This document shows positions 6,927 through 23,830 of a stretch of DNA of 32,000 nucleotides, piece by piece. A program made the translations under genes and the position numbers. Every line of letters starts with the position of its first letter. Position 1 is the first letter of the stretch. The DNA comes from Nitrosospira multiformis ATCC 25196. GTDB taxonomy: Bacteria; Pseudomonadota; Gammaproteobacteria; Burkholderiales; Nitrosomonadaceae. The DNA is taken from the NCBI RefSeq assembly GCF_000196355.1, contig NC_007614.1, forward strand, positions 1,650,001-1,682,000. Direction: 5' to 3'. The notes below the pieces were generated by a model. The model ran no database searches and was not told where the DNA came from. It saw only the letters and a program-made list of their open reading frames with translations.

Positions 6927-6977
6927 CTTTCGATTCCTCGTGTTCCATGTTCATTTGTGCTTATCGGTATGCAGGCG

Positions 6978-7271
6978 TCAGGGAAGGGTTTCTGTGATGC
7001 AATCCAGTTTCGCCTTTATGGTCTCCTTTACATTGCCTGCATTCAGTGCGGCGCACGAGGATATTTCCGGAATGGGAGATGCCGGCTTGGATTTTGGCTT
7101 CGAGACCTCCACGGGATTCATCGATGTTTGCGGTTTTACCGTCGAAACGTGGGGGTCCACGGGGGTTTCGTTCGTCAGCGGGGGTTTGTTCGTCACCGCC
7201 GGTTCATTCGTCGCCAGGGGCGTAAGCATGGTGCACGACGCCAGAAGGGAGGCTCCCAGCAAATACCTCAT
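6978..7271 (-). CDS. Proline-rich lipoprotein, o-spanin-like
   Basis: Lipobox LLASC after MRYLLGAS. The mature part is Pro/Thr-rich and has two further Cys. Its ATGA start overlaps the stop of the upstream membrane/coiled-coil gene. Confidence 0.55.
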   Translation of the reverse strand: MRYLLGASLLASCTMLTPLATNEPAVTNKPPLTNETPVDPHVSTVKPQTSMNPVEVSKPKSKPASPIPEISSCAALNAGNVKETIKAKLDCITETLP

Positions 7272-7579
7272 GCCTTTCTCCCCCTAGCCCATTTCTCGAT
7301 GATTCTGTCGAGCTTGTCATTGAATTCCTTCATCGTTTCACGCTGCTCGGCTCTCACCGATTTGAGTTCCTCATCGAGGCGTTCATTGGTTCTTTCCTGA
7401 TACAGCTCTCCTCGTTTCAGCGTCGCGATATCATTTTGCACCGTGTTGTACGTGGCTACGCCAGATGCAACCAAACCCGCCACTGCAATAATTCCACCGA
7501 AGGATAATGTGTAGGTGGATGGTCCACGCCGCCTCTCGACCCTGTTCGCGATCTCTTGGTCGCCTTCATCTTCTGCCAT
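7268..7579 (-). CDS. Single-TM, coiled-coil membrane protein, i-spanin-like (or holin-associated)
   Basis: I prefer the ATG at 7579 (MAEDEGDQ...), 2 nt after the upstream stop. It has one TM segment (FGGIIAVAGLVASGVATY) followed by a charged helical region (RTNERLDEELKSVRAEQRETMKEFNDKLDRIIE). Confidence 0.5.
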   Translation of the reverse strand: MAEDEGDQEIANRVERRRGPSTYTLSFGGIIAVAGLVASGVATYNTVQNDIATLKRGELYQERTNERLDEELKSVRAEQRETMKEFNDKLDRIIEKWARGRKA

Positions 7580-7581
7580 GA

Positions 7582-7758
7582 TCAGGACAAACCCCATAAA
7601 ACTATTGCGAACACAACCGCACCCAGCAATATTGGAGCGGTCCATTTCGATTCCTTCAGCTTTTCCAATAAACCGTCTGCGCGGACTTCAGCTGCGGCAC
7701 GTTGACTTTCCACTTCTTCCTGGATGGCTTTGATGCGCTTGCGTTGAAACATGGTCAC
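7582..7758 (-). CDS. Small membrane protein, holin candidate
   Basis: AGGAGG at 7771..7766 lies 7 nt before the GTG at 7758. The product MTMFQRKRIKAIQEE...WTAPILLGAVVFAIVLWGLS has a C-terminal TM. The track start (TTG at 7803) would add a second hydrophobic segment, but it lies inside a terminator hairpin. Confidence 0.45.
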   Translation of the reverse strand: MTMFQRKRIKAIQEEVESQRAAAEVRADGLLEKLKESKWTAPILLGAVVFAIVLWGLS

Positions 7759-7783
7759 AATAATTCCTCCTAGGATGGTGAAT

Positions 7784-7823
7784 AAAAAAGCCCGTTCGGG
7801 CAAAAAAAAAGCGGCTATGCCGC
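7784..7823 (-). terminator. Tandem intrinsic terminators (minus strand)
   Basis: GCGGC-TAT-GCCGC (7811..7823) is followed on the minus strand by T9, then GCCCG-TT-CGGGC (7790..7801) is followed by T6. They sit just downstream of the stop at 7851. Confidence 0.7.
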
Positions 7824-7850
7824 ATCTTGTTCAAAAAATTTCGATCATGT

Positions 7851-8441
7851 TTACCACTTGATGTCATCCAGTTGCTGCCGAGTAGGAAAATCGCCAAGCG
7901 CAGCAACCCTCTCCTGTAATCTCTGCCTCTTGCCCGTCAGTTGACCATGCACTCTCGCAAATGCAGCAGCCTTGGCGATAATTTTGCCCGCAAGATCTGC
8001 CTTATTCATATTTCGAGCATCAGCAGCGCTGTCCAGCCAGGGAGTATGGGCTTGAGGATTCGAAAACCATGCTTTTGCTTCCCCTTCCTGTAATGCCCAG
8101 CTTTTGACTTCTTCCTCTGGATAAGCTGCTGTCAATTCCCTTATGTCGGACTGGTAAGCAGCGTTGATGCGGGCGACAGCCGCTGCTTTCATTTGATCCG
8201 GACCCGGTGCAGTTAACACGGTGATTTGTTCTGATGGCGCGGTTTTCCATAGATCCACAAATGGTTGAAACTCTGCCATGTTTGTGAGCAGCGTATTTGC
8301 AGTATCGTCATACTCTATATGGCCGCTTGTATCGTTCCACTGCACAGCGCGCACATTGGCCCTCAACGAGGACAAATCGATTCGCCTGAATACCCCATCG
8401 ATTCCAACCACGCTGTCGTCCCGAATGATTGTCACTCGCAT
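7851..8441 (-). CDS. Tail-fiber assembly/chaperone-like protein (196 aa)
   Basis: N-terminus MRVTIIRDDSVVGIDGVFRRIDLSSL..VQWNDTSGHIEYDD and C-terminal YPEEEVKSWALQEGEAKAW. From memory these resemble DUF4376-type phage proteins found next to fibers; this is unverified. Confidence 0.55.
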   Translation of the reverse strand: MRVTIIRDDSVVGIDGVFRRIDLSSLRANVRAVQWNDTSGHIEYDDTANTLLTNMAEFQPFVDLWKTAPSEQITVLTAPGPDQMKAAAVARINAAYQSDIRELTAAYPEEEVKSWALQEGEAKAWFSNPQAHTPWLDSAADARNMNKADLAGKIIAKAAAFARVHGQLTGKRQRLQERVAALGDFPTRQQLDDIKW

Positions 8442-8785
8442 ATCTCGCTCTGCTCCAATAAACCGTTACCCTGGACCTTCCTGTTGGCCATGTGCGCCGC
8501 CACGAGCAGCACTTGTTGCGTTTTCTCGCTGTGCTTCACCATCTCATTACGGAAAGATTCCGTAGCTGCAGCGCCCTTGCGGGATTCGTTGGCAGTGTTG
8601 ATCATCAACGTGGGCAGCCAGCCTATAGCGCACCCCCATGAATCGGTTTCCTGTCCCGTATTGGTATTTACCCCGCGCACCTGCACATACCATGGACATC
8701 GATAAAGGACGGGTTTGCTGTCCTCGATCTTAAGCTCTTCACATTTTGCCTCCAGCGGACAATTCGCTATGCGTATTTCCATCAA
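8432..8785 (-). CDS. Hypothetical Cys-containing protein (117 aa)
   Basis: The ORF overlaps both neighbours. It has four Cys (CPLEAKCE...RCPW...WGC). Function unknown. Confidence 0.5.
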   Translation of the reverse strand: MMEIRIANCPLEAKCEELKIEDSKPVLYRCPWYVQVRGVNTNTGQETDSWGCAIGWLPTLMINTANESRKGAAATESFRNEMVKHSEKTQQVLLVAAHMANRKVQGNGLLEQSEICE

Positions 8786-9678
8786 TCCTTACTCGCTATG
8801 ATTATGTCGATGTATTGCACGGCAAGGTTGATGGCCGTGCCGGTAAAAATATGGCTGTGGGAGCCACCACCCCCTGTGCCGGCATCTGTAATTGGCATCC
8901 CGGTAATAATTCCACCTCCTCCACCGCTGGGGTTAGCCCCTCCGCCTGATGTCCCATATACACTCAAACTATGCGTATGCGCCGGTATCTGCGCCGAAGT
9001 CAATGTCGTCGCACTGTTCCAACCCGAAACTGCCTGCGACGTGAAGGCTGACGTGAACGCGACTGACCCCCCCGAACCGCCACCGGCACTTCCTACAACA
9101 CGCAGCGCCTTATTGTGATGCGTCGTGACCTGAGTCCAGCCTGTCGGGGCCGTCGCCTGAAAAAATGACATAACGGTTCCAGGGGGAATGAGGCTCGCAG
9201 GCGCAGCGCCTAGAGTCTCTCTTGCGGTCGCTGCATTATCATCATCCAGCAAGCTCCGGATATAGGAACTCAGATTCGCCAATGCAGCTGTGCCTGGTCC
9301 AGTAAAATACGCCATCTTATCGGCTGACGTTTCCAGGCCGCCAAGCGCCTGGAGATTTGGATTTGCAAGAGATTCCTGCAAGGCGATGTTGGTCACGCCG
9401 GCAACGAAATAATCGCCTGCTGCCCAGGTACGGGGAGCCGTACCGTCCAGTCCTCGTCCTCCTTGCGCGATGGTTAAGCTGTCGCTGGTACGTGCCTCGA
9501 TTTTCACGATTTCCCGGTTGCCGGAAGCATCCTTGAATATCCCATAAAAATAATCGCCGATGCCGGGCGATGGAAAGAGAACGCCCTTTCCGGCCTCTAT
9601 TGTGAAGCTCAATCCCGTTGTTCCGCTCGGGGCAGAACTGATAATGGCCTTGCCAAAATTCGAGAACTTGAGTCCCAT
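8782..9678 (-). CDS. Tail fiber protein with C-terminal phage tail-collar domain
   Basis: N-terminal fiber-like region (FPSPGIGDYFYGIF.D.SGNREIVKIEARTSDSLTIAQGGRGLDGT). It also has an ARETLGA motif, a Gly-rich stretch, and PTGW...IPAHTHS...GGSHSH...YIDIIIASK, typical of tail-collar domains. Confidence 0.8.
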   Translation of the reverse strand: MGLKFSNFGKAIISSAPSGTTGLSFTIEAGKGVLFPSPGIGDYFYGIFKDASGNREIVKIEARTSDSLTIAQGGRGLDGTAPRTWAAGDYFVAGVTNIALQESLANPNLQALGGLETSADKMAYFTGPGTAALANLSSYIRSLLDDDNAATARETLGAAPASLIPPGTVMSFFQATAPTGWTQVTTHHNKALRVVGSAGGGSGGSVAFTSAFTSQAVSGWNSATTLTSAQIPAHTHSLSVYGTSGGGANPSGGGGGIITGMPITDAGTGGGGSHSHIFTGTAINLAVQYIDIIIASKD

Positions 9679-11587: not shown

Positions 11588-12859
11588 TTAAAGCGGCACA
11601 GCCGAGTCAACCGCAATCACACCAAAGTCGGTGGGTACCCTGAAACCTGTTCCATCGTCGATAGAGAAACGGGTTTTCGCTTTGCCGCAAACCTTCTCAC
11701 CCATCACTTCCAGGTTACTTTCAAAGTTATACCAATGCTCCTTCCATCCGAACTGCATTCCGCTGACCCTGGTTTTGCCATAAGCGACCCCCAGTGCTTG
11801 TGCGCCTAATAATAATCCGCGCTCGATCGCGTACCCGGCAGTCAACGCTCCATTGACAGCCTGATCGGTTTCTGTGGCAGTTGTCGCGTTTGCTGCGGTG
11901 ACTATCTTTGTGCTTTCCCCAGGCATAAAACGGATCGCACGCTCATTCTTGATCACCAGAATGCCATTCCACATCCCAACCTCACCGGCAAACAGGGGGT
12001 GGCGCTCGTCAAAATATGCCGCCCGATTGATGGCATTCTGCTGGAAAGCACGTAACGAACCTTCGGTCAAAAGGAGCGAATACTGATTGGGTGTGGCGAG
12101 AAATACCCACATCTTGGAAGTCTGAGCGGCTCGGTCCCCTGCCAGTTTGACGGATTGCAATGGCTGATCCATGTCATCAAGCCTCTTCCGCAGCAGATCC
12201 AGATGCGACAAGCGCAGGGCGTCCGTTGAAACGACGGATCCCAACTGCTGTCCCCCTGAAGTCAGATTGGCGCCGTTCACTACAAAATGACGATTATAGG
12301 TAGGGGCCTTCACGGGATTCACCATGATGGAACTGAAGTTCGGCGCGCTTTGAAGCGGTACTGTCCAGTCCGAACCGGTTTGCGAACCGCGTGCTCCTGC
12401 AAGATGCACCAGGGTTTCCTGAGCGTCGAGACGGGGGAAATAACCTGACAATTGCGCCAGGGCAATTTCCCGCAACTGATGCTTGGTGCGTTGCTGCGAC
12501 ATGCTGCCACCGGCATCGATAACCTTACTGGATAGATCGATCTTGATCTCCATCGAGGAAAACGAAAGCGCGCTGCCCCGTCCTTCACGATTGACGTCGC
12601 CCATCAATGGTTCACCGCCCACCGTATCGACCAGATCGAGCGATACGACATCGCCAGCACTTTTCATTAAATTATCGATTCGCACGATAGGCATGCCCGG
12701 ATTTGTTTGACCGGCAATTTTCTGCATTGCTACTGAAGGCTCGACCGGGCCCACAAGACTGTCAATCGCTGTGGATCCTTTGAGCGTGTTGGCGAAGAGC
12801 GCCGCGCTATAATGTTTGACTGCCAGTGAACTTCCGCTTGCTACGTTTGTTTCAGCCAT
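11588..12859 (-). CDS. Major capsid protein (HK97 fold; resembles the N4-gp56-type family)
   Basis: 423 aa, immediately after the scaffold gene. The pattern KHYSAALF...IVRIDNLMKSAGDVVSLDLV..GEPLMGDVNREGRGSALSFSSMEIKID matches, from memory, the N4-type capsid family. A weak hairpin follows at 11536..11562. Confidence 0.8.
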   Translation of the reverse strand: MAETNVASGSSLAVKHYSAALFANTLKGSTAIDSLVGPVEPSVAMQKIAGQTNPGMPIVRIDNLMKSAGDVVSLDLVDTVGGEPLMGDVNREGRGSALSFSSMEIKIDLSSKVIDAGGSMSQQRTKHQLREIALAQLSGYFPRLDAQETLVHLAGARGSQTGSDWTVPLQSAPNFSSIMVNPVKAPTYNRHFVVNGANLTSGGQQLGSVVSTDALRLSHLDLLRKRLDDMDQPLQSVKLAGDRAAQTSKMWVFLATPNQYSLLLTEGSLRAFQQNAINRAAYFDERHPLFAGEVGMWNGILVIKNERAIRFMPGESTKIVTAANATTATETDQAVNGALTAGYAIERGLLLGAQALGVAYGKTRVSGMQFGWKEHWYNFESNLEVMGEKVCGKAKTRFSIDDGTGFRVPTDFGVIAVDSAVPL

Positions 12860-12873
12860 TTAATCAATAATCC

Positions 12874-13836
12874 TTAATCAAGTTCGGCTCTCAGGGCTGC
12901 CGCCTGATGCGTGGGCATCTTCATCAGCTTCTGAGCAAGTTCAAATGGGCTCAGACTCTCAAGTTGCTCACGTTCAGAGGCTGGATTTGCTCCACCCTGA
13001 ATATCCGATAGAGTTACAGGCTTCCTCACCGGGGCTGCCTCAAGCTTGGCTTGCAAATCCGCTTTCATCATTCCCGGATCGGGTTTCTTTTTTGGAGTGG
13101 AGGCCTCGGGCATGATTGCCCTGACACGCCGGACAACCTCCTGGAACCGTTCCGCATAAGGCTTTCCTGCCCACTTTGTATTGGTTCTCAGAATTTCATC
13201 CTGCTTGAGTGCTTCTTCCCACGCGTCAGCGTCATTACTTTCCCAATGCGCGAGATCAGGATTATTGTCTTTTGCCTCTGCGACTTGCTCTGCAGTACTC
13301 AGCTGGTTTCTGCGCTCGGATTCCTCTTTTTCGCGCTCCAACTCCCGCAGTGTTTGCTCCAGCTTTTCGCCTTGCTTCCGGCTTCCCTCAAGCAGCGCGC
13401 TGAGTACCTGATGAAGTTGAGGCATTTCTTCTTTCAGAGCCTCCAGATGTATCTTGAGTTTTTCATCCAGCGCACCGGTCTCTACTTCCTTTGCTTCCTC
13501 TTTCCGTATCAGGAATTCATCGAGTTTGCCTTGGGCGGATTTTAGCTGCTCACGCAGCGCCGAGTTCTCTACCCGCAATTCCTTGTGCTTCTGGTAGGGA
13601 ATGGTCCCCTTGCCGCTTTTATTCAGAACGACAGGCTCATCTTCACTTTTATCCCCGCCCGCCTTGCCGGGCATGTCGTCGTTAACGGGGGAGCTGGATT
13701 TCTCCGTTTCCTTTTCCTCAGATGCTTCCTGCCTGCCTAGAATTTCTGCAAGCTTGTTCGGGTCGCTTTCCAATATTTCGATTTGTTCCGGCGTAAGATT
13801 TGCGATTTGCTCATCCGTAAGCTGATCCACTTTCAT
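12874..13836 (-). CDS. Scaffolding protein
   Basis: 320 aa, highly charged and helical (EE/KE-rich, LEQTLRELEREKEESERR), located just before the capsid gene. Confidence 0.75.
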   Translation of the reverse strand: MKVDQLTDEQIANLTPEQIEILESDPNKLAEILGRQEASEEKETEKSSSPVNDDMPGKAGGDKSEDEPVVLNKSGKGTIPYQKHKELRVENSALREQLKSAQGKLDEFLIRKEEAKEVETGALDEKLKIHLEALKEEMPQLHQVLSALLEGSRKQGEKLEQTLRELEREKEESERRNQLSTAEQVAEAKDNNPDLAHWESNDADAWEEALKQDEILRTNTKWAGKPYAERFQEVVRRVRAIMPEASTPKKKPDPGMMKADLQAKLEAAPVRKPVTLSDIQGGANPASEREQLESLSPFELAQKLMKMPTHQAAALRAELD

Positions 13837-13982
13837 CTTTCCTCCAAACTACTTAACCCAGTGAGCGGGCCTGCCTTGAGCAGGGTTCAAAAAAACCCCT
13901 GAACAACACAAGAAGTGCATTGATCAGAGGTTTCCAGGACTACTACTGCAATACTGCCGCTAGCGTTCGCATGAAAGCCAGT

Positions 13983-14010
13983 AAAAAACCGCCACTGTTT
14001 CCAGAGGCGG
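13983..14010 (-). terminator. Intrinsic terminator T1 (GAAA tetraloop)
   Basis: The minus strand reads CCGCCUCUG-GAAA-CAGUGGCGG followed by U6, 24 nt after the stop of 14034..14771. Confidence 0.8.
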
Positions 14011-14033
14011 CTCGATAGAGTCCGATTGAAACA

Positions 14034-14771
14034 TTATTTCTGCAGCATTTTTAAGGGCGACACTGGCACTTCCCCCATAACCGCCGGAAAACTTTCGTTG
14101 CCAGTCCATTGCCTGGCGTTCCGCACCCACATTCTCACCATGTCATAGTCCTGAGTAAGCGTTCTTGGCCCCACCTTGAAGTAAGGACCAGTTGCGTCCT
14201 CATAAGCCGTGGGCACGTTGTATTCCCCGAAAATCTTCATGCGGTCCAGATAAACCTCGCGCCAGCCGGTAGCGTTTGTTTGTAGATTTGCGCGAATCGT
14301 GACGTTATGCCACTTGCCTTTTTCCACCTTCCTTGCTGCTACAATCCTTCCGGTTGAAGTTACTGCCGGAAGCGTAGTCGCGGGGACGGCCACAAAAAGC
14401 GTTTCCTGGTCGACAATGCGCAAACCGATATTGACGTGCTTGACAGTCAATTCTTCGCCTGGGTCTGGTGTCGGATACCACGATCCAAGTCCCGAGAAAT
14501 TGTTTGTGGTCCATGAAGGATCGATCATGAAATCCAGCGAGGACCAGCATTCGCCGGAATTAGGAAATGCAGGAAAACTGACTTCGGTTCTGTGACCGAA
14601 ATTTGTTTCTGTATCTGGGCCGTACAGGGTCAGGCGTGCCGCTCTATCCACAATCTCGATACGATCCCTCATTCCGTCAAGCATCTTATTTCCGGGCCCC
14701 TCGACGCCATTTGCCTGTAAATACGTACCGGCGAAATCGACATCGAGAGGAAAATTGAATAACTGAGTCAT
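14034..14771 (-). CDS. Polysaccharide-lyase-like beta-jelly-roll protein, copy A (245 aa)
   Basis: The motifs HRTEV (res 60-64), KHVNIG, KWHNVTIR, GWREVYLD and YFKVG (res 197-201) recall the R-x-E-x-R / H / YFKAG signature of PL7-type lyases. The call is tentative and made by eye. Confidence 0.6.
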   Translation of the reverse strand: MTQLFNFPLDVDFAGTYLQANGVEGPGNKMLDGMRDRIEIVDRAARLTLYGPDTETNFGHRTEVSFPAFPNSGECWSSLDFMIDPSWTTNNFSGLGSWYPTPDPGEELTVKHVNIGLRIVDQETLFVAVPATTLPAVTSTGRIVAARKVEKGKWHNVTIRANLQTNATGWREVYLDRMKIFGEYNVPTAYEDATGPYFKVGPRTLTQDYDMVRMWVRNARQWTGNESFPAVMGEVPVSPLKMLQK

Positions 14772-15649
14772 CAGAACGCGCTCCTCAAAATGGGATTGCC
14801 CGGATTCGAGCGAAGCTGCTGAAAAACACTCGTCAGAGTTTTCACGGAGGGCATGGGATAGCTGGCGGGCAGCCTGAGTATTACCAAAGCCCTCGTAGCC
14901 GTTGCGATGCCCGAACTGGATCTGGCAGGCGCAGGGTACGATGTGCCGATATTGAAGGTGTTGGAATTGCGTGTATCTATCCCGCCGGTTAGCGGAGTAT
15001 ATGAGCCTTCAGAGAGTGAATACTCCTCGTCCACCCATATGCCGTGCTGCCCCCCCTGCCCACCCCCGCTTATGGCTATGCCAAAACTGTGCAAGCCGCC
15101 GGAAATGCTCTTGTGCCCATTTGAAGAGTAAACTTCGGTGGCACCTGACAGTACGAAACCGACACGTCCATTTGTTTGCAGTAAAATGTTAATCCCCCGT
15201 TGTCCTGGAGACGTACCATAACCATCGCCCATCATCGGGGTAGGGATTGTTTCTGCCGTAACCTTGCCAAGCCACCAGATAATCAGCTTCTCGCCACCTG
15301 CATAGTCATAGTTCAGATTGGGAATGCGCAATACGGAATCGGTTGCGCCAGTTGCCGGGTCAACCGTGGACGCATAGCCGGAATTCGGCGTCCAGAGTTG
15401 CGCGACCGACAGGTTCACGCCCCGCGAAGCATGGTTTATTCCTGTCAGATCGTAAAATTTCTCGTCGTCTGCAACCTGCTTTCCCGTGAAGCCGTGAAAG
15501 TGGTAATAAGGATGGAATCCGTCGGGATCGTAAGCTTCAGCACTCTCCAGTGTTATCAGAATGTCCTCAACACTTTTATCGAAGGATGCAACAGTTCCCT
15601 TCCCGTAAAGATATCCTGATAAAGTTGTGTTGCCCAGAAATCGAATCAT
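14771..15649 (-). CDS. MIRFL-N-terminus protein with LamG/ConA-like lectin domain, copy A (292 aa)
   Basis: LamG-like strand pattern (FYDLTG, KLIIWWLGKV, GRVGFVLSG, LHSFGIAISGG..HGIWVDEEY, NTFNIGTSY, RALVILRLPAS). The stop overlaps the start of the 245-aa gene by 1 nt (TGATG). Confidence 0.65.
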   Translation of the reverse strand: MIRFLGNTTLSGYLYGKGTVASFDKSVEDILITLESAEAYDPDGFHPYYHFHGFTGKQVADDEKFYDLTGINHASRGVNLSVAQLWTPNSGYASTVDPATGATDSVLRIPNLNYDYAGGEKLIIWWLGKVTAETIPTPMMGDGYGTSPGQRGINILLQTNGRVGFVLSGATEVYSSNGHKSISGGLHSFGIAISGGGQGGQHGIWVDEEYSLSEGSYTPLTGGIDTRNSNTFNIGTSYPAPARSSSGIATATRALVILRLPASYPMPSVKTLTSVFQQLRSNPGNPILRSAF

Positions 15650-15676
15650 ATATTTGCCCTTTCTGTTTATCCAAAT

Positions 15677-15706
15677 AAAAAAGCCGCCCCTGTTTCCAGA
15701 GGCGGC
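15677..15706 (-). terminator. Intrinsic terminator T2 (GAAA tetraloop, 10-bp stem)
   Basis: The minus strand reads GCCGCCUCUG-GAAA-CAGGGGCGGC followed by U6, 23 nt after the stop of 15729..16466. Confidence 0.85.
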
Positions 15707-15728
15707 TCAATAGAGTGCGATTGAAACA

Positions 15729-16466
15729 TTATTGCCGCAGCATTCTCGAGGGCGACACTGGCGCTTCCCTCATCACCGTCGAGAAACTTTCATTGCCAGT
15801 CCATTGCCTGGCGTTCCGTACCCACATTCTCACCTTGTCATAATCCTGGACGAGCGTTCTCGGTCCCATCTTGAAGCTGGGACCAGTCGCGTCCTCATAA
15901 GCCGTGGGCACGTTGTATTCCCCGAAAATCTTCACGCGGTCCAGATAAACCTCGCGCCACCCAACAGCAGTTGTTTGCAGATTTACTCTGATTGTTACAT
16001 TATGCCACCGTCCTTGTTGTATCTTGGCAATTGCAACTGTCTTGCCCGTACTACTTACAGCAGGCAATACCGCTGCAGGGACATTCACAAAGAGCGTATC
16101 TCTATTCACGAGACGCAAACCGATATTGACGTGCTTGACAGTCAATTCTTCGCCTGGGTCTGGTGTCGGATACCACGATCCAAGTCCCGAGAAATTGTTT
16201 GTGGTCCATGAAGGATCGATCATGAAATCTACCGAGGACCAGCATTCGCCGGAATTAGGGAATGTTCCGAGCTGTATTTCGGTTCTATAGCCGTAGTTTG
16301 TTTGCCGGTCCGTACCGTACAACGTTGTTCTGGCTGCTCCGTTTATGATCTCAAGTCGATCGGAAATTCCGCTCAGCATCTTATTTCCCGGGCCCTCGAC
16401 GCCATTTGCCTGTAAATACGTACCGGCGAAATCGACATCGAGAGGAAAATTGAATAACTGAGTCAT
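15729..16466 (-). CDS. Polysaccharide-lyase-like beta-jelly-roll protein, copy B (245 aa)
   Basis: Paralog of 14034..14771, with ~79% aa identity by hand alignment and a mosaic pattern. The YFKVG motif reads SFKMG here. Confidence 0.6.
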   Translation of the reverse strand: MTQLFNFPLDVDFAGTYLQANGVEGPGNKMLSGISDRLEIINGAARTTLYGTDRQTNYGYRTEIQLGTFPNSGECWSSVDFMIDPSWTTNNFSGLGSWYPTPDPGEELTVKHVNIGLRLVNRDTLFVNVPAAVLPAVSSTGKTVAIAKIQQGRWHNVTIRVNLQTTAVGWREVYLDRVKIFGEYNVPTAYEDATGPSFKMGPRTLVQDYDKVRMWVRNARQWTGNESFSTVMREAPVSPSRMLRQ

Positions 16467-17344
16467 CAGAACGCGCTCCTCAAAATGGGATTGCCCGGAT
16501 TCGAGCGAAGCTGCTGAAAAACACTCGTCAGGGTTCCCACGGAGGGCATGGGATAGCTGGCGGGCAGCCTGAGTATTACCAAAGCCCTCGTAGCCGTTGC
16601 GATGCCCGAACTGGATCTGGCAGGCGCAGGGTACGATGTGCCGATATTGAAGGTGTTGGAATTGCGTGTATCTATCCCGCCGGTTAGCGGAGTATATGAG
16701 CCTTCAGAGAGTGAATACTCCTCGTCCACCCATATGCCGTGCTGCCCCCCCTGCCCACCCCCGCTTATGGCTATGCCAAAACTGTGCAAGCCGCCGGAAA
16801 TGCTCTTGTGCCCATTTGAAGAGTAAACTTCGGTGGCACCCGACAGTACGAAACCGACACGTCCGTTTGTATATAATGCGATACGAATGCCTCCCTGTCC
16901 CGGGGACGTACCGTAACCATCGCCCATCATCCGGGCGGGGATTGTTTCTGCCGTAACCTTGCCAAGCCACCAGATAATCAGCTTCTCGCCACCTGCATAG
17001 TCATAGTTCAGATTGGGAATGCGCAATACGGAATCGGTTGCGCCAGTTGCCGGGTCAACCGTGGACGCATAGCCGGAATTCGGCGTCCAGAGTTGCGCGA
17101 CCGACAGGTTCACGCCCCGCGAAGCATGGTTTATTCCTGTCAGATCGTAAAATTTCTCGTCATCTGCAACCTGGTTTCCCGCGAAGCCGTGAAAGTGGTA
17201 ATAAGGATGGAATCCGTCGGGATCGTAAGCTTCAGCACTCTCCAGTGTTATCAGAATGTCCTCAACACTTTTATCGAAGGATGCAACAGTTCCCTTCCCG
17301 TAAAGATATCCTGATAAAGTTGTGTTGCCCAGAAATCGAATCAT
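16466..17344 (-). CDS. MIRFL-N-terminus protein with LamG/ConA-like lectin domain, copy B (292 aa)
   Basis: Differs from copy A at 9 of 292 residues by hand count, with the same TGATG coupling to its partner. Confidence 0.65.
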   Translation of the reverse strand: MIRFLGNTTLSGYLYGKGTVASFDKSVEDILITLESAEAYDPDGFHPYYHFHGFAGNQVADDEKFYDLTGINHASRGVNLSVAQLWTPNSGYASTVDPATGATDSVLRIPNLNYDYAGGEKLIIWWLGKVTAETIPARMMGDGYGTSPGQGGIRIALYTNGRVGFVLSGATEVYSSNGHKSISGGLHSFGIAISGGGQGGQHGIWVDEEYSLSEGSYTPLTGGIDTRNSNTFNIGTSYPAPARSSSGIATATRALVILRLPASYPMPSVGTLTSVFQQLRSNPGNPILRSAF

Positions 17345-17404
17345 ATTTGCCCTTTCCGTTTATCCAAATATTAAATGGTTCTCTACCCGAAACGCCTTTG
17401 TTTA

Positions 17405-17644
17405 TATAGGGAACAGTTCCCTTGCCACTTTTGTTCAGAATGACAGGCTCATCGTCACCTTCATCGTCGCTCTCCTTGCTAAGCATGGCATCCTTCACAT
17501 CGGGGGATTTCTCCTTTCCCTCTTCCTCCGGTGCTTCCTGCCTGGCTAGTACCTCCAAAAGCTTGCCCGGATCGCTTTCCGATATCTCGATTTGTTCCGC
17601 TGAAGGTTTACAATTTGCTCATCCGTAAGCTGATCTACTTCCAT
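17405..17644 (-). pseudogene. Scaffolding-gene 5' remnant (truncated and frameshifted)
   Basis: The minus strand from the ATG at 17644 gives MEVDQLTDEQIVNL, against MKVDQLTDEQIANL in the scaffold. A 1-nt deletion then shifts the frame. The other frame continues ...LEVLARQEAPEEEGKEKSPDVKD...DDEPVILNKSGKGTVPY, matching scaffold residues ~30-81. Homology stops after PY at ~17405. Confidence 0.85.
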
Positions 17645-17782
17645 CTTTCATCCAAATGCTTAACAGTGAGGCCTGCCTTAGCAGGATTGAAAAAAGAAAC
17701 CCCTGAACAGCACAAGAATTGCGTTATCCAGGGGTTTCAGGGATTACTACTACATTATTGCCACTAGCATTCGTATGAAAGC

Positions 17783-17814
17783 AAAAAAAAACCGCCAATG
17801 TTTCCAGAGGCGGT
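17783..17814 (-). terminator. Intrinsic terminator T3 (GAAA tetraloop)
   Basis: The minus strand reads ACCGCCUCUG-GAAA-CAUUGGCGGU followed by U9, 30 nt after the stop of 17844..19415. Confidence 0.8.
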
Positions 17815-17843: not shown

Positions 17844-19415
17844 CTATCTATATCTCAATGTATAACGCGGAGTGTTCGTTACGTCTTCCACTGCCCCAAT
17901 ATTGGGAGTGTTATAAAACTGTTTTCCGTAATAATCCTTGCCTCCAAGATAAGCTCCAGCCCGTTTTACTTTTGAAGAGTGGGGGCGATAATTGGGATCG
18001 AGGCCCGGGTTTACATTGAGACTGGAAGCATTTAAAGCTTGGGTTCCTGATTTGAAGCCAAAAAATACGTTGTTTGATTCTCGGTTCCAAGCTCCCGAGT
18101 CATACCGAATATCAAACGCCCCAAGATCTTTGGCTGTGAATATGTTGTTTTTGCAAAAATTGGAATCAGCGGGAAAGGTTGTTGGATTCCCGTATATCGC
18201 CGCTAGGTCACAATTTATGAATGTGTTATTGAAGATGTTGCTCACCCGCCCAGGAGTCTGGTTTCCGTAAAAAACTCCCATGTGACAATTCTTTATGACA
18301 TTCCCGTAGCAAGTGATGTTGGTAGCCTCATAGATGATTCCAATTCCGGCTCCGGCTGTGAAATTAGCGGGGCCCACCAAGTTTTCAAGGTAGTTACCAT
18401 AGGCGAGACATCCGTCTGCTCCGTGGTCAAACAGAAGACCACAGCCATCGTAGATAACTGAAGAGATGTTCTTCGCAGAGTTGTGCCTTATGATATAGCT
18501 TCCATACATAATATTGGCAAACCCGGTTGTACCCTGCAGGCCGTCCGCTATATTATTTTCGATTACATTCTGACCAAAGTCTGAGGTATCTGTTTGAATG
18601 AATCCCCCCACGACAATCCCCCCGCCAAGATCGCCTACTCTAGTTTGATTATTTATCTTATTCCCATAAATCTTCACACCCTTGTTACGACCAGTTTTGG
18701 GGACATACGCCTTGATCGCAGCGCCGCCGCAATTGGTAAATGTGTTTCTATGGATGTCGAGATCGTATATATGAACATTGGACGGATTTAATTCTGTTCC
18801 TAATGCGTTTGTGCTGGCGAGAAGCACAATCACTCCCTGCTGGGCCGAACATCCAGTGAAGGTATTGTTCGTAATTTTAAGGTTCTCGATATATGTATTA
18901 ATCCCACTTTGCGGCCACCAGCTAATTGCCGCTCCGGCACCTCCGCCAACTCCGCCATTGAACGTGTTGCCATCTATTGTGGTATTGATCCAGCTCCAAG
19001 TGTTTATCGAGAAAAATTCGATGCACGGGAAGGACGAACCGTAGAAGGTACAGTTTTTAATTACAAGACCGGTCTGGGGAGTTCCACTAGGCACAATGCA
19101 TCTGTTTTGAGATGTAATTGTCAGTGCCTCAACGGTTATTGAAGAACGATTTACATTGAAATAGATATTGTTGCCCCTAAAAGAAAGCGATCCAGACTCA
19201 GATGAGTGGTTCCCCCTGATAGTGACGCCAGTAACATTGCCTAGCGCAATAACTGAAGTATATGTGTGCGCTCCACAGATGTATAAAGTGTCTCCGGTAT
19301 TTACTCCTGAAGTGCCCCAAACAATCTCGGACCAGCCTCCCCAGGCAAAATCATAAGACTGCCCGTTGCGCGTTCCGCTGTGTGATGTGTCAGGACGAAT
19401 GAACCACTCCGCCAT
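17844..19415 (-). CDS. Right-handed parallel beta-helix protein (pectate-lyase-like tailspike/depolymerase candidate), 523 aa
   Basis: Repeated N-x-(I/F)-x-N-N/C turns (IKNCTFYG, IDGNTFNGG, ITNNTFTGC, IHRNTFTNC, IYGNKINN, IENNIADG, IRHNSAKN, YGNYLEN, YGNVIKNC, FNNTFINC, CKNNIFT). The N-terminus WFIRPDTSHSGTRNGQSYDFAW is typical of such enzymes. Confidence 0.75.
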   Translation of the reverse strand: MAEWFIRPDTSHSGTRNGQSYDFAWGGWSEIVWGTSGVNTGDTLYICGAHTYTSVIALGNVTGVTIRGNHSSESGSLSFRGNNIYFNVNRSSITVEALTITSQNRCIVPSGTPQTGLVIKNCTFYGSSFPCIEFFSINTWSWINTTIDGNTFNGGVGGGAGAAISWWPQSGINTYIENLKITNNTFTGCSAQQGVIVLLASTNALGTELNPSNVHIYDLDIHRNTFTNCGGAAIKAYVPKTGRNKGVKIYGNKINNQTRVGDLGGGIVVGGFIQTDTSDFGQNVIENNIADGLQGTTGFANIMYGSYIIRHNSAKNISSVIYDGCGLLFDHGADGCLAYGNYLENLVGPANFTAGAGIGIIYEATNITCYGNVIKNCHMGVFYGNQTPGRVSNIFNNTFINCDLAAIYGNPTTFPADSNFCKNNIFTAKDLGAFDIRYDSGAWNRESNNVFFGFKSGTQALNASSLNVNPGLDPNYRPHSSKVKRAGAYLGGKDYYGKQFYNTPNIGAVEDVTNTPRYTLRYR

Positions 19416-19991
19416 TTAATCCCCCACGAAATGCAGCACTCGATAGTATTCGAGTTTAAGCGCATCGCCATTGCTTGCTCTCTGTCCGGTAATATCGAAC
19501 GTGACACTGTTTGCAAAGTTAATAGTGTAAGTTGCTGGAGTATCCGATCCTGCCGTTACGTACGCATTGTCGTAAGGTTGTATTTGCGCCGTCAGGGAAT
19601 TACGATTTGCCAGAACGATGAGCGGCGCTTCTTTGACAGACATCGTGCGGGTGGCACCGTAAACTGTCACACCGTCAACCCTGACTTTCAGAATCTTGTT
19701 GTTCGCGCTACTGCTGAATGTCCACACCGGCTCGATCTGGAGGATGCTGTTGACGCCGATGATTCCCCCATGAACGGTAAACGACCCCAAAACCTCATCC
19801 GTCGCCGTCAAGGCGCATGAGGCAGCCACAGCCGAACTCGCCAGTACCTCTACCGGCTTAGTAACTGCCGGATAATCTTCGGCATCACCTTGAGCGATCA
19901 AAATCGCCTCAGTCACATCATCAAACCTGGAAATTGCGCCCTTACCGTATCTGTATCCCGCCACAGTTTCATCATTCAGAAACCGAATCAT
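19416..19991 (-). CDS. MIRFL-N-terminus protein (191 aa), partner of the beta-helix protein
   Basis: AAGGAG lies 7 nt before the ATG, 13 nt after the portal stop. The first ~40 aa align with the 292-aa proteins. The stop TAA abuts the ATG of the 523-aa gene. Confidence 0.65.
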   Translation of the reverse strand: MIRFLNDETVAGYRYGKGAISRFDDVTEAILIAQGDAEDYPAVTKPVEVLASSAVAASCALTATDEVLGSFTVHGGIIGVNSILQIEPVWTFSSSANNKILKVRVDGVTVYGATRTMSVKEAPLIVLANRNSLTAQIQPYDNAYVTAGSDTPATYTINFANSVTFDITGQRASNGDALKLEYYRVLHFVGD

Positions 19992-20004: not shown

Positions 20005-21999
20005 TTATGCGGATAATGCGTTACCTATCTGACAATCAGCAATCTTCTCCGCCTCCAGACGGAATTTAGCATCATCCATATCCTCTTTATGCGCCTGCGC
20101 ACGCGCTTTCAAGTCAAGTCCGCATGCCTTAAGCTGCAGCTCAGCCTCCCCCAATCTCTGCTGCAACTCCCCAATCCGCCCTTGCGCCTCCTGTATCATC
20201 TGCTGCACTTGCTGCTGCAAAGCCTGAAACGGGGAATTATCGTCAATGCCTGCCACTTGCCTTAATTGATGGGCCAACTCATGCCGGTTCGGGACATTGG
20301 ACAGCTCGAGCATTACCGGATAAAGTACGGCCTGAAACCGAGGGGGCGCGGCTTGTACGATTTGCGACATAGCTTGCAACTGCTGCGCGCGAAATGTCGG
20401 AGTAGCAGGAATATCCTCAAGCACGACTTTGACCATTGCAGAAGCAATGTCGTTGTGTACCAACCCGTCATCCAACTGGCGATTGAAATAAACCACCTTT
20501 GGTTTATTACCTTGCTGGACTGTAATTTGCGCGGGTCTTCCAATCAGGTCCTCCTTGATCAGCGCAAGAAGTTGCTGGCCAACAAGTCGGCGAGCATGTC
20601 GAAAATTATCATTGGGCTCCGCCAACACGGTCGACCCCTGTTCCACGAGACTGTTGATCGCCACACCGCTGCTTGCTGAGGTATGCGCTCCCAGCATAGT
20701 GCGGTAGATTCCGCCCACTTCCTCGATCCTGCGCTTGCGTTCCTGCACGAGCTGAAACACTTGAGCGGCAAGCTGGTGCTCGCGTATTACCCTGAAGCCA
20801 CTGGTATTCCTTCGCTGAGAGTTGAGGATGGTCATCGAGCGCAGACTGCTTATATTATTCGCCACCTCCTGATAGGAATTCTGGCTGAGATCAAGCGCAT
20901 CATTGTCCACTTCGACTTTTACCGAATTGAGGACTTCATAGAGAAGAATATCCAGATCGATAATCTGATCCTGCGGTCCCCGCATGTCACGAATCAATCC
21001 GTAGGGAGCTCGACTCCTATCCTTGCGAAAGCACCAGAATGGAACATATGGAAAATCTGAATGGGGTAATGGACTCGGAACATCCATGAGTTTATGCGGC
21101 CCCAACCAGATCGAGACCCGCATCCTGGTGAGAACCGATTTCTGGACCTGCACGAGACCTTGGGCAACCGCTGCCTGATGGTATGGGTTATCCTCGCGGT
21201 ATTCGATTATCTTTCCATCGGTCAATACCAGGACGTATGCATCCTCGAAATGCCGATACCACAACTCGGAGAGCCTGACCATACCCGAGTTCCGGTTCAG
21301 GTAATCTTCCTGGGTGCGATTCCATGCCTGCTCGATTTCATATGCTCGCGCCAAGCCGTTATCATAACCTTCATACACGTCAGTCCCATTCCACCCCTTC
21401 CAGCTATTTGCAATGATTTCCGCCCGGTCGGGGAACATGAGGGCGGCCTGAAGCCGGTCTATCCACTTATCGCGTCGCAAATATCGCGCATCGGACAAAT
21501 CCGGCTCCCTTGAACTCCAGTCCCAATAAATTTCGTTGCGGTGCACCTCCCGGACACGATATGGATATTTGAGCGCATCAAATTCCCGGGATATTTCTAC
21601 CCAACCAATGCCCGCCCGAATCATGCTGGAATACGCGTCTGACATGGCCCGGTCAGCGCGTGACTCGGTTTCGGCCTCCTTGATTTTTGCGGAAAGACCT
21701 TCCGCAATTTCTGCCTGACTCTCATCATCCGCCGTCACCCTGTAATCCGTTCGGCTACGCGCTTCCAATCCCAATACCGCGTTGATCGTCGGTTTGATCA
21801 GATTGGAATCCTGGGGCGGGATACCGGCCATCTTCAGTCGTCCGATCACCTCCGAGCTGGTCTGTGCGCCGTCGTAATAATCACAGTCCGTGTCCGAGTC
21901 CGACCGCCACTTCGGTTGATCCCGAATATCGCGGCATATTTTGTCGTAAGCCTCAATCGAAATATCTGCCGTAACACCTGCCTCAGTCATGCCCGCCAA
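20005..21999 (-). CDS. Portal protein (664 aa)
   Basis: Large ORF overlapping the terminase stop by 13 nt. The long C-terminal Gln-rich coiled coil (QALQQQVQQMIQEAQGRIGELQQRLGEAELQLK) resembles the P22-type portal barrel. Its position between terminase and head genes supports the call. Confidence 0.75.
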   Translation of the reverse strand: MAGMTEAGVTADISIEAYDKICRDIRDQPKWRSDSDTDCDYYDGAQTSSEVIGRLKMAGIPPQDSNLIKPTINAVLGLEARSRTDYRVTADDESQAEIAEGLSAKIKEAETESRADRAMSDAYSSMIRAGIGWVEISREFDALKYPYRVREVHRNEIYWDWSSREPDLSDARYLRRDKWIDRLQAALMFPDRAEIIANSWKGWNGTDVYEGYDNGLARAYEIEQAWNRTQEDYLNRNSGMVRLSELWYRHFEDAYVLVLTDGKIIEYREDNPYHQAAVAQGLVQVQKSVLTRMRVSIWLGPHKLMDVPSPLPHSDFPYVPFWCFRKDRSRAPYGLIRDMRGPQDQIIDLDILLYEVLNSVKVEVDNDALDLSQNSYQEVANNISSLRSMTILNSQRRNTSGFRVIREHQLAAQVFQLVQERKRRIEEVGGIYRTMLGAHTSASSGVAINSLVEQGSTVLAEPNDNFRHARRLVGQQLLALIKEDLIGRPAQITVQQGNKPKVVYFNRQLDDGLVHNDIASAMVKVVLEDIPATPTFRAQQLQAMSQIVQAAPPRFQAVLYPVMLELSNVPNRHELAHQLRQVAGIDDNSPFQALQQQVQQMIQEAQGRIGELQQRLGEAELQLKACGLDLKARAQAHKEDMDDAKFRLEAEKIADCQIGNALSA

Positions 22000-23240
22000 C
22001 CTTTCATATTAATACCTCGCGCACTCGCCGCCGGTTTATCCTCCTCGATTGCCATGGCAAAATAGCGAAAGGCATCGGCTGCATGGCTGTGATAATCATG
22101 TAAGGGCCTTGCGCTGAATTGACCGGAATCACGATCGACATCAAATCGATAATGTCTCAGGCTCTGCAGGCCTTCTGCACAATTCTGTTCATCAAAATAG
22201 CAACGTGGAAAGATGGTTCTCGCCGCGTTGATACCATCATGAATGGAGAGATTTGGCACGATTCTTACCTTTCTTCCCGCCGCAAGCATAATTTCCTCCA
22301 CGCTGCGCCCGGTTGCCAACGTTCGCGCTCTGGCATCGTGCGGCAACCAGTCTGTACCATACATATACCCTTTGTTTTGCAGCACTCCGATATAATGCTG
22401 AATTGGCATCTGGCTATTACTGTAGTAATCGATCAATCTGAGTTCGTTGCCAACAGTCTGCGCAAACCAGATGCTGGTGTTGTCTGCCCAACCAAGATCG
22501 AAGAAGGTGTGGACCGGCTTTGCCTCATCATATGGCACGCTTCGTATCCTTCCTTCTTCCTGCGCCAATCGAAGCTCCTTCGCATATACCGCTCCCTCCA
22601 GGGTTACCCTACAATTCCCTTCCCATACATTCTGGTAAGCATCCGGATCACGCGCTTTCAGTCCATCCTTCTCCCGTCGCAGTATCTCCGGAAACCACGG
22701 GTTGTCATTCCAATTGATTTTTACGACGACAGCGCCCGCAGGGGGATTGACTACAAATCGCTGATGAGTCTCGTCAGTATTGAGTTCAGGATTGTAGGTC
22801 ACCCAGATTTCCGACCCCTCTTTACGAATGGTCGGAATAAGCGTATCCCAACTTGTCTTGCTCACTGTCTGGGCTTCTTCCACCCAGACTCTATCCACAC
22901 CTTCAAACGACTTGATCCTGGTTACGTTGCTATGCAGACCGGCAAAGATGAACTCGGAACCGTTTATTCCCCGTATAACGTTATTGTGCACCTCGTAAAA
23001 TGAATTTAAGCCGATGGCTTCTATCTGTGCTTTCAATAAATGATGCACGGATTCGACGATAGAATTCTGAAACTCTCGTACGCATAAAATACGCAATGGA
23101 GTTGCAGCCGCCTGAATCAACAATGCCCTGGCAACACCCCAGCTTTTTGCACCCCCCCTTCCCCCGTATAAGATTTTGTAACGTGCCGGCTCAAACAGAA
23201 ACCTGAGCTTTATCGGAAATTCAGCTCTATGGGAAGTCAT
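21987..23240 (-). CDS. Terminase large subunit
   Basis: Walker A YGGRGGAKSWG near the N-terminus, then VWVEEAQ (Walker B-like), and a C-terminal nuclease-like region (DLGWADNTSIW...DWLPHD). Overall it resembles PBSX/Terminase_3-type TerL. Confidence 0.9.
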   Translation of the reverse strand: MTSHRAEFPIKLRFLFEPARYKILYGGRGGAKSWGVARALLIQAAATPLRILCVREFQNSIVESVHHLLKAQIEAIGLNSFYEVHNNVIRGINGSEFIFAGLHSNVTRIKSFEGVDRVWVEEAQTVSKTSWDTLIPTIRKEGSEIWVTYNPELNTDETHQRFVVNPPAGAVVVKINWNDNPWFPEILRREKDGLKARDPDAYQNVWEGNCRVTLEGAVYAKELRLAQEEGRIRSVPYDEAKPVHTFFDLGWADNTSIWFAQTVGNELRLIDYYSNSQMPIQHYIGVLQNKGYMYGTDWLPHDARARTLATGRSVEEIMLAAGRKVRIVPNLSIHDGINAARTIFPRCYFDEQNCAEGLQSLRHYRFDVDRDSGQFSARPLHDYHSHAADAFRYFAMAIEEDKPAASARGINMKGWRA

Positions 23241-23257: not shown

Positions 23258-23830
23258 TTACGATGATACATTTGGCTCATTGCCTCTATCTTCCGGAGCG
23301 ACAAAAGCTATCGCGATGTTATGCGCGGCTTTCCTGGCATCGGCGCCTTCGTTGGTAACAGGTAATTTGTCGCCATATTTCCTTGGTGCAAGTCTTGCGG
23401 CATACCATTTGCGGGCATCGATGCGCAATTGAGCACGCGCAATAACTTCCCGGTTTATGACCTCCCGTCCCTTTTCATCCACATACGTATCTCTCGATCC
23501 CTCGTCTGAAATTTCGATGATTTCCTCCGCATAGGCATCCACGCAAAGCTCCTTGGCGCGTTGATATTGGCGCATGAGTTCTTCATCACTCGCCAGCCAA
23601 TTCCATAAAACCCTCTGGCTGATACCGACCTCCACGCACATCGCACGAGCCGATTTTCCAAGTGAAATGCCAGCGAAGATCGCGTCAAGTGCTTCACGCC
23701 TCTTTATGGCTCGACTGCTCTTTTTCGGACTCGCAGGCTCTACGCTTACTGCACCTTTTTCTGCTTCCTCGCTGGATACTTCACCCACAAATTTACAAGT
23801 GCCCGGCTTTATCAGCGCTTCCCTTTCCAT
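23258..23830 (-). CDS. Terminase small subunit
   Basis: HTH-like ISLGKSARAMCVEVGISQRVLWNWL, then RAQLRIDARKWYAARLAPRKYGDK, a common TerS C-terminal signature. It lies directly upstream of TerL. Confidence 0.75.
   Translation of the reverse strand: MEREALIKPGTCKFVGEVSSEEAEKGAVSVEPASPKKSSRAIKRREALDAIFAGISLGKSARAMCVEVGISQRVLWNWLASDEELMRQYQRAKELCVDAYAEEIIEISDEGSRDTYVDEKGREVINREVIARAQLRIDARKWYAARLAPRKYGDKLPVTNEGADARKAAHNIAIAFVAPEDRGNEPNVSS

Follow-up and report, generated by a model that had tools for sequence, protein, structure and literature searches.

Probable concerted evolution of a tandem lectin-fold and lyase cassette in a Nitrosospira multiformis prophage

Two adjacent copies of one two-gene cassette, carried by a prophage of Nitrosospira multiformis, switch abruptly within a single gene between near-complete identity and less than 60% identity, and the question raised by this locus is which of the two states is the older one. 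The DNA analysed, referred to throughout as the window, is a stretch of 32,000 nucleotides (nt) covering NC_007614.1 positions 1,650,001–1,682,000, and coordinates below are positions within it. Each cassette encodes a 292-amino-acid (aa) protein with a predicted lectin fold and a 245-aa protein matching the polysaccharide lyases of PF14099; the copies are designated up (15678–17372) and dn (13983–15677). The answer favoured here, at a probability of roughly 0.75, is that these cassettes, the second and third of an array of three, are old paralogs that have been partly homogenised by gene conversion, with ancient and conserved islands surviving in their lyase genes.

The tandem repeat and its mosaic divergence

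The features on which the argument turns are given below, where paralogs are the two copies of one genome and orthologs the copies at the same position in different genomes; pLDDT is the AlphaFold2 confidence score and pS the proportion of synonymous differences.

13983–15677, minus strand: dn repeat unit, with 5' leader, 292-aa gene, 245-aa lyase gene and terminator (offset-1695 comparison and repeat finder)
15678–17372, minus strand: up repeat unit, laid out as the dn unit (offset-1695 comparison and repeat finder)
14771–15649, minus strand: 292-aa protein, dn copy (AlphaFold2 pLDDT 94)
16466–17344, minus strand: 292-aa protein, up copy (96.9% aa identity to the dn copy)
14034–14771, minus strand: 245-aa PF14099 polysaccharide lyase, dn copy, type A (Pfam 46.9 bits)
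15729–16466, minus strand: 245-aa PF14099 polysaccharide lyase, up copy, type B (Pfam 49.2 bits)
14565–14678 (dn) and 16260–16373 (up), minus strand: lyase island 1, codons 32–69 (paralogs ~57% nt identity, orthologs 88–97%, paralog pS 0.83)
14289–14414 (dn) and 15984–16109 (up), minus strand: lyase island 2, codons 120–161 (paralogs 57–59.5%, orthologs 92–99%, paralog pS 0.80)
14415–14564 (dn) and 16110–16259 (up), minus strand: homogenised lyase block, codons 70–119 (paralogs 96.7%)
15170–15244 (dn) and 16865–16939 (up), minus strand: remnant island in the 292 gene, codons 136–160 (paralogs 72–74% in the window)

An earlier reading of this DNA, made from the letters alone and called here the sequence-only reading, had placed the two copies at an offset of exactly 1695 bp, and an ungapped comparison and a repeat finder both bear this out. 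At that offset the units differ at 192 of 1695 nt (88.7% identity), and in the 5' leader of the up copy homology extends to ~17375, with a 2-nt insertion or deletion (indel) in the 5' flank. The hand counts of the same reading were also accurate. The 292-aa genes differ at 28 of 879 nt (96.8% identity) and their products at 9 of 292 residues, six of these lying in one window of ~20 residues (IPTPMM..GQRGINILLQ versus IPARMM..GQGGIRIALY); at the nucleotide level, codons 136–160 are 72% identical and the remainder of the gene 99.0–99.3%. The lyase genes differ at 143 of 738 nt (80.6% identity) and encode proteins that are 79.2% identical, where ~79% had been estimated.

Divergence is distributed along the lyase gene in blocks, with nucleotide identities between up and dn copies of 96.8% (codons 1–31), 57.0% (32–69), 96.7% (70–119), 58.7% (120–161), 88.1% (162–228) and 80.4% (229–245). 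The sharp boundaries described in the sequence-only reading are not an impression of the eye: the longest identical run of the unit is 303 nt against a maximum of 130 nt in 10,000 permutations, and the clumping of differences per 60 nt gives a dispersion index of 9.2 against 0.9 in permutations (maximum 2.0). Uniform divergence across both genes, which a block-by-block identity comparison could have returned, was not found, lyase blocks ranging from 57.0 to 96.8%.

Programmed variation was considered separately. An invertible segment or shufflon was rejected, as the repeat finder gave no inverted repeats, and a diversity-generating retroelement was rejected since mismatches involve all bases and are not adenine-specific; a retroelement is disfavoured as well by the saturation of synonymous sites in the divergent blocks. 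No reverse transcriptase was found among the ~30 open reading frames (ORFs) scanned against Pfam, a set that falls short of every ORF in the window.

Paralogs and orthologs across genomes

The tandem pair is not an artefact of one record, because it is found in further genomes, and an assembly artefact was rejected given its presence in several independent isolate and metagenome assemblies. The other carriers are the sister strain N. multiformis GCA_900107715.1 (L001), which is 99.6% identical across the region, strain Nl7 (L019 = L025), the JGI metagenome contigs L002 and L003, and a metagenome-assembled genome (L020 and L021); relatives with a single lectin–lyase cassette are L004–L006, L008, L010 and L012. 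For the lyase, amino acid identity is 91% across genomes at the same position (up against up, dn against dn) and 75–79% between paralogs. For the 292-aa protein it is 97–98% between paralogs within a genome and 87% between orthologs, whose genes are 91–94% identical in nucleotides. Nucleotide identities among the five tandem genomes follow the same blocks:

Lyase codons 32–69: paralogs 57–59%, orthologs 88–97%
Lyase codons 120–161: paralogs 57–59.5%, orthologs 92–99%
Lyase codons 70–119: paralogs 91–97%, orthologs 79–99% (window against other lineages 79–86%)
292 gene outside the codon 136–160 patch: paralogs 95–99%, orthologs 91–96%

Taken over the 292 gene and lyase codons 1–31 and 70–119, copies within a genome are 95–99% alike and orthologs 77–93%.

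The same partition is seen site by site when both copies of the window are set against both copies of a second genome. With L002 as the second genome, 96 sites unite the copies of one genome, 105 unite copies at the same position and 4 support neither grouping; with isolate Nl7 the figures are 68, 119 and 4. These sites fall into 17 runs where 101 (L002) and 87.5 (Nl7) would be expected (z −11.9 and −11.2), and the block boundaries agree. In the first 960 nt of the unit, sites grouping by genome outnumber those grouping by position by 67 to 3, and in lyase codons 70–119 by 21 to 1–2, while the sites that group by position (105–119) are concentrated in the lyase islands.

Substitution rates date the two kinds of block. 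Near-identical blocks have a synonymous divergence (dS) of 0–0.09 between paralogs, the 0.09 being in codons 70–119, against 0.2–1.5 between orthologs, and the 292 gene has a paralog dS of 0.014–0.07 (0–0.016 in the window outside codons 136–160) against an ortholog dS of 0.21. The identical blocks are therefore young and converted. In the lyase islands, synonymous sites are saturated between paralogs (pS 0.80–0.83, with a nonsynonymous divergence, dN, of 0.35–0.39), and orthologs have a dS of 0.1–0.4 and a dN/dS of 0.06–0.34; each island type is conserved in the orthologs of four other genomes, and the islands are thus under purifying selection. Since the islands keep their positional orthology across genomes, the duplication or allele joining that created the pair predates the split of the lineages. 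The patchwise gene conversion suggested in the sequence-only reading accordingly stands as a process, with its direction turned around: it is the identical blocks that were converted and are young, and the divergent ones that are ancient.

Two further suggestions, that the lyase is the diversifying partner and that its companion is held constant, were not borne out. The first is contradicted by the per-block dN/dS, which is that of purifying and not of diversifying selection, and by the saturation of the islands between copies and their conservation in orthologs. As to the second, it is the 292-aa protein that changes more between lineages (13% of residues against 9% for the lyase, with a dN/dS of ~0.3 against 0.14), and the 292 gene looks constant within a genome because its two copies overwrite each other. 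Stronger protein constraint on the identical blocks was tried as a separate cause and rejected, as dS is near zero there and conservation among distant homologs is ordinary: across 17 distant lyase homologs, entropy is 1.63 in codons 70–119 and 1.74–1.83 in the islands, which are without indels.

One conversion event is visible between sister strains. The window and L001 differ at 51 sites in 13 kb, of which 16 lie within 34 nt of the up 292 gene, and at all 16 the L001 base is that of the dn copy:

16871–16904, minus strand: conversion tract of 34–47 nt, where the up copy of L001 bears dn-copy sequence

The upper bound on its length is set by up-specific bases retained 6 and 9 nt away. The tract falls within the patch at codons 136–160 of the 292 gene, where paralogs are 79% identical in Nl7, 94% in L001 and 100% in L002. 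Since the up patch of the window is 92.5% identical to that of Nl7, the 292 gene had this position-specific island ancestrally. The remnant is still whole in the window and in Nl7, whereas half of it has been erased in L001 and all of it in L002.

The history shown by these patterns begins with the up (B) and dn (A) lyase types already in tandem in an ancestor shared by four or more of the lineages sampled. Gene conversion, as homologous recombination that is non-reciprocal and confined to short tracts, has since repeatedly overwritten one copy with the other where identity is high, across the whole 292 gene and lyase codons 1–31 and 70–119, so that these parts evolve in concert within each genome. 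Lyase codons 32–69 and 120–161 and, less sharply, the C-terminal third have escaped overwriting, and are anciently diverged with each type conserved across lineages. The islands probably persist because an identity of 57–59% leaves no stretch long enough for recombination, and selection may keep two lyase specificities as well.

Origin and role of the cassettes

Concerted evolution may instead have acted on a pair of different birth: in this less likely alternative, two alleles of separate phage origin (types A and B), diverged beforehand, would have been fused in head-to-tail order by unequal or illegitimate recombination, and their common parts homogenised afterwards. That the array grew by an illegitimate join at least at one point is recorded in its upstream flank:

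17374–17791, minus strand: junction scar upstream of the array, made of the pre-scaffold spacer and the first ~88 scaffold codons, frameshifted, and ~80% identical to 13570–13987
17844–19991, minus strand: first cassette, with genes for a 191-aa and a 523-aa protein, followed by a terminator hairpin at 17791–17814

The scar separates the 523-aa gene from the first 292-aa gene, occurs also in L002, L004 and L008, and means that the 191- and 523-aa cassette was stacked by such a join. Joining of alleles is favoured too by the split between up and dn islands, which with its saturated dS is deeper than that between the up type and the single-copy L004 allele (dS 0.65–0.79), and by the range of relatives, in which the number of cassettes varies from one to three and their location is sometimes a different one. 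No scar is present between units 2 and 3, however, where a clean junction of T-run to leader is that of unequal homologous exchange or simple duplication, and no independent single-copy type-A phage was found. The sole candidate, L024, looks like a deletion derivative of a tandem: it is 97.5–99.3% identical to L002, has a single cassette with a dn-type lyase, and its 292 gene agrees with the up copy at six informative sites from the 5' end and with the dn copy from there on. This is suggestive only of an unequal-crossover deletion between two 292 genes, L024 being a metagenome contig for which an assembler skipping the repeat loop fits equally.

Several arrangements in relatives were noted in passing. 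A lectin-plus-lyase cassette follows the capsid gene and a 148-aa gene in L016 (12690–14365), another stands between large terminase and portal in L037 (6001–7478), and two strongly diverged ones lie side by side in L018 (Nitrosospira sp. Nl5, 5799–9613). The 523-aa gene is replaced in L002, Nl7, L024 and L029 by an allele 48–50% identical to it, between flanking genes that are >90% identical; together with its low guanine–cytosine (GC) content, this suggests a recent allele swap in the first cassette. A faint PF13229 match was obtained for the L002 ortholog of the 523-aa protein.

What the cassettes do bears on the next alternative. The structure predicted for the 292-aa protein by AlphaFold2 (84 homologs) is a ConA/LamG-like jelly roll behind an N-terminal anchor-like module of ~45 aa. 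Its Foldseek neighbours, which are fold-level matches only (6–18% sequence identity), include the receptor-binding domain (HC) of botulinum neurotoxin (BoNT), the trans-sialidase lectin domain and phage ConA-like proteins, as well as the tailspike of cyanopodophage Pan3 (9vyh_p, template modelling (TM) scores 0.53/0.56) and tail fibre and structural proteins in BFVD. No Pfam match was found for it, neither PHROGs nor NCBIfam matched any of the four cassette proteins (both 292-aa and both 245-aa), and neither the 292 profile nor the 523-aa protein retrieved anything in sequence searches of the PDB.

The first 40 aa are common to the 191-aa and 292-aa proteins (53% identity, BLASTP E 1e-10; 19872–19991 against 15530–15649 and 17225–17344), and look like a common anchor module. 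In L010, a 291-aa protein bears a 191-type N-terminus. The remaining ~245 residues of the 292-aa protein recur in the phages L011 and L015 with another N-terminus, encoded immediately behind tail genes, one of them for a PF07484 Collar fibre protein, and in the homolog P0098 they follow collagen repeats. When the N-terminus of the 292-aa protein was compared with the canonical tail fibre of the prophage (298 aa), no similarity was found. The 191-aa protein (19416–19991) belongs to a uniform family of >232 cluster representatives, with nearly all of the 120 listed being 190–193 aa long and 60–88% identical; its named members are almost all from Nitrosospira genomes, most others are from metagenomes, and it is without annotation.

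Both 245-aa proteins exceed the PF14099 cut-off of 29.9 bits, and the profile of the family has a local match to the PL20 glucuronan lyase 2ZZJ (E 2e-5, 57 residues aligned); one homolog is named 'heparin lyase I family protein' by NCBI. The start of the dn lyase overlaps the stop of its 292 gene by 1 nt, and in both cassettes the lyase is taken to be translationally coupled to the 292 gene. The up lyase (type B) is 91% identical in amino acids to its L002 ortholog, 83% to the single-copy L004 allele, which it resembles, and 79.2% to the dn copy. Both copies are intact ORFs that keep every family-invariant alignment column, including H112, Y174, Y184, Y190, K111 and R118, and with an ortholog dN/dS of 0.14–0.15 both copies appear functional. 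In ~20 of 23 full IMG/VR loci the lectin gene has a lyase homolog right behind it, very distant loci included, in which lyase identity is down to 28–33% and other genes surround the pair, and the lectin-fold and lyase genes would thus appear, on gene neighbourhood, to be an obligate pair.

The cassettes lie in a prophage with a P22-type portal and an SU10-type adaptor, in which all genes of the cassette region are on the minus strand and the cassettes are co-directional within the structural operon:

23258–23830, minus strand: small terminase
21987–23240, minus strand: large terminase
20005–21999, minus strand: P22-type portal
19416–19991, minus strand: 191-aa protein
17844–19415, minus strand: 523-aa protein, beta-helix-like
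12874–13836, minus strand: scaffold-like protein
11588–12859, minus strand: major capsid protein
15681–15708, minus strand: terminator hairpin and T-run after the up lyase, at the unit junction (terminator scan; −23.9 kcal/mol, z −6.3)
13986–14013, minus strand: terminator hairpin and T-run after the dn lyase (−18.1 kcal/mol, z −3.8)

Downstream of the capsid gene are genes for the adaptor, the 298-aa tail-fibre-like protein, a lysozyme and an internal virion protein, and their presence marks the element as a short-tailed phage. In Achromobacter phage CF418P1 and Pseudomonas phage 8P the portal is directly followed by scaffold-like and capsid-like genes, and because these cultured relatives have it empty, the portal–scaffold junction is an insertion site specific to this prophage group. 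Megablast with the region gave no match in GenBank phages or in complete E. coli genomes, and among 50,697 GenBank phage records tblastn found no relative of the 292-aa or the 245-aa protein.

Other observations concern the element as a whole. Its end lies near 24.7–26.2 kb, with host genes beginning near 26.2 kb (a thiamine pyrophosphate (TPP)-dependent enzyme, hemerythrin, flavin mononucleotide (FMN) reductase, pirin and a LysR regulator), and it extends past the left end of the window (in L047 with acetyltransferase-like and further genes). A scan of the whole window found no transfer RNA (tRNA) gene. An HNH endonuclease gene stands between large terminase and portal in the single-cassette L010 (6502–7068) and L012 (4503–5078), and is absent from the window. 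In N. multiformis Nl18 (L008, 4533–6520) the portal ORF is shortened to 597 aa plus small fragments, against 659–664 aa in relatives, and the prophage in that strain may be decaying. Both copies of the pre-scaffold spacer (13837–13985 and 17644–17790) hold a second strong hairpin with a U-run and a small third hairpin, in which base changes keep the pairing; there are thus two terminator-like structures ahead of the scaffold and capsid genes, neither of which matches an Rfam family, and Rfam gave no match on 11–21 kb.

It is considered unlikely that the cassettes are morons, accessory genes that the prophage would express to the advantage of its lysogen (for example to remodel the exopolysaccharide of the lysogen itself or of its neighbours) and not parts of the virion, although the layout lends itself to that account. 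Each cassette has its own intrinsic terminator, all three ending in one shared hairpin, CCGCCTCTGGAAACAnnGGCGG, with a T-run; they separate the portal gene from the scaffold gene, which in cultured relatives stand side by side, and their proteins match no PHROG structural family. Yet no convincing promoter was found, sigma-70-like sites being no more frequent than in shuffled sequence and the sole one near a cassette overlapping its start codon. The GC content of the two units (0.49–0.535) is that of the flanks (0.51–0.53), cassette and flanking phage genes together spanning 0.49–0.53 in the comparison made for this point, and only the 523-aa gene is lower, at 0.45. The modular swapping of the 292 N-terminus and the tail-fibre gene neighbours in other phages also speak for the particle, and neither N-terminus resembles a signal peptide (judged by eye, with no predictor run). 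A late and probably particle-borne role is favoured by the operon position, the lectin fold with its swappable anchor, the tail-fibre neighbours elsewhere and the polysaccharide-degrading partner. The pairs would then be late-expressed, probably virion-attached modules that bind and cleave glycans, and two lyase versions could let the phage handle two variants of a surface polysaccharide.

A more ambitious proposal, held here to be distinctly doubtful, is that the array is a specificity-shuffling device, whose homogenised 292 genes and conserved lyase blocks serve as recombination guides for changes of array size and reassortment of lyase islands, and would be kept nearly identical for that purpose. 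Shuffling might then run within and between co-resident phages and give rapid changes of host range, in the manner of silent-cassette antigenic variation and of conserved-motif swaps in T-even adhesins. It might also be that the lectin-plus-lyase pairs are anchored close to the portal or neck and not at the tip of the tail.

A recent tandem duplication followed by import of the divergent patches from a third allele is very improbable. Recombination is frequent in this group of phages, the up-type islands resemble the single-copy L004 allele at 79–91%, and in the window lyase codons 70–119 are, in both copies, only 77–83% identical to all other lineages, which suggests one import; comparison of sequences makes it likely that this block came from an unsampled allele and then spread to the second copy. 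The third-allele recombination raised in the sequence-only reading thus probably holds for codons 70–119, and fails as the source of the divergent islands. Both island types keep their positions and their up/dn order in five genomes, between flanks differing by up to ~9% and with each type 88–99% identical, so that an identical set of imports would be needed independently in each lineage; nor are the tandem lineages one recent clone, prophage identity outside the cassettes being 91–96%, and the closer relationship of 292 paralogs than of orthologs would be left unexplained.

That the lyase, once duplicated, came under focused diversifying selection on its surface loops and under purifying selection elsewhere is the least credible account of all, for although the last 17 codons reach a dN/dS of 1–1.4 in some comparisons (on very few sites) and the variable residues of the 292 patch (154, 156 and 158) alternate on a predicted strand as would fit one exposed sheet face, the islands are saturated at synonymous sites, have orthologs under purifying selection and, when distant homologs are compared, do not vary more than the other blocks, and protein constraint could not produce a dS near zero in the identical blocks.

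Several points weigh against the interpretation of the cassettes as old, partly homogenised paralogs with two maintained lyase types. Metagenome assemblies, to which some of the genomes compared belong, can assign near-identical repeats to the wrong copy, although isolate genomes (window or L001 against Nl7) yield the key pattern too. The origin of the pair may be either duplication in place or the joining of pre-diverged alleles, and the terminator-ended cassettes, between genes adjacent in cultured relatives, also fit lysogen-expressed morons. Virion association and lyase activity are deduced from sequence and fold, and the AlphaFold2 model of the lyase (pLDDT 34, on a 14-sequence alignment) does not allow the islands to be placed on surface or core. 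Finally, a sequence barrier and selection may both protect the islands and are not mutually exclusive. Selection is favoured by purifying selection in both orthologous series, by two intact ORFs and by persistence of the array in several lineages; two 99%-identical direct repeats of 880 nt should be easily lost.

Comparison with known systems

The locus offers a natural example of concerted evolution in a phage receptor-binding or depolymerase locus, with a history that can be read block by block in five genomes. It also indicates that mosaics of identity and divergence in duplicated phage genes can be old homogenised paralogs and not recent diversifying duplicates, which affects surveys of host-range genes. 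To our knowledge, the phage biology of ammonia-oxidising bacteria is barely explored, and the pair of ConA-like lectin with swappable anchor and PL20-like lyase is a widespread, uncharacterised two-gene unit in their prophages, for which the portal–scaffold junction is an unusual site accumulating one to three cassettes. Searches of the literature on Nitrosospira prophages, phage tail-fibre gene conversion and Pan3 returned nothing directly relevant.

With the PF14099 lyases, among them the PL20 glucuronan lyase 2ZZJ, the window lyases share a Pfam model matched by both copies above threshold and a local profile match; unlike them, the characterised enzymes have no phage context and no obligatory lectin partner. 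Morons, as described by Hendrix and colleagues, are likewise extra genes between normally adjacent ones with an intrinsic terminator, whereas here no promoter of their own was detected, composition does not differ and the modular anchor points to a structural role. A review of phage morons is available (PMC3594210).

Receptor-binding systems with several enzymes include the dual tailspikes of K1-5 and SP6, TSP1–4 of CBA120, the anchor-and-branch depolymerases of Klebsiella phages and the gp37/gp38 mosaics of T-even phages. Modular phage depolymerases resemble the present cassettes in an N-terminal anchor with exchangeable distal domains, in adjacent glycan-degrading modules and in exchange at conserved segments. 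In the window, by contrast, two different polypeptides supply the enzyme and the anchor-bearing lectin, the predicted fold of the enzyme is that of a small PL20-like jelly roll and not of a beta-helix, and the genes lie between portal and scaffold and not in the tail module.

Concerted evolution itself is familiar from tufA/tufB in Salmonella, flaA/flaB in Campylobacter and ribosomal RNA (rRNA) operons. Conversion rates between E. coli rRNA operons are among the matters treated in PMC8022953. No description of phage receptor-binding or depolymerase genes under such concerted evolution was found in the literature searched, and the phenomenon is thus known in kind, as concerted evolution of tandem duplicates with escape islands, in a setting for which no prior description was found. 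The likeness to interlocus gene conversion extends to paralogs closer than orthologs, short tracts and a mosaic of homogenised and non-homogenised segments; where the locus departs from the known cases is in being a two-gene phage cassette in tandem, with islands at 57–59% nucleotide identity whose two types are conserved across lineages.

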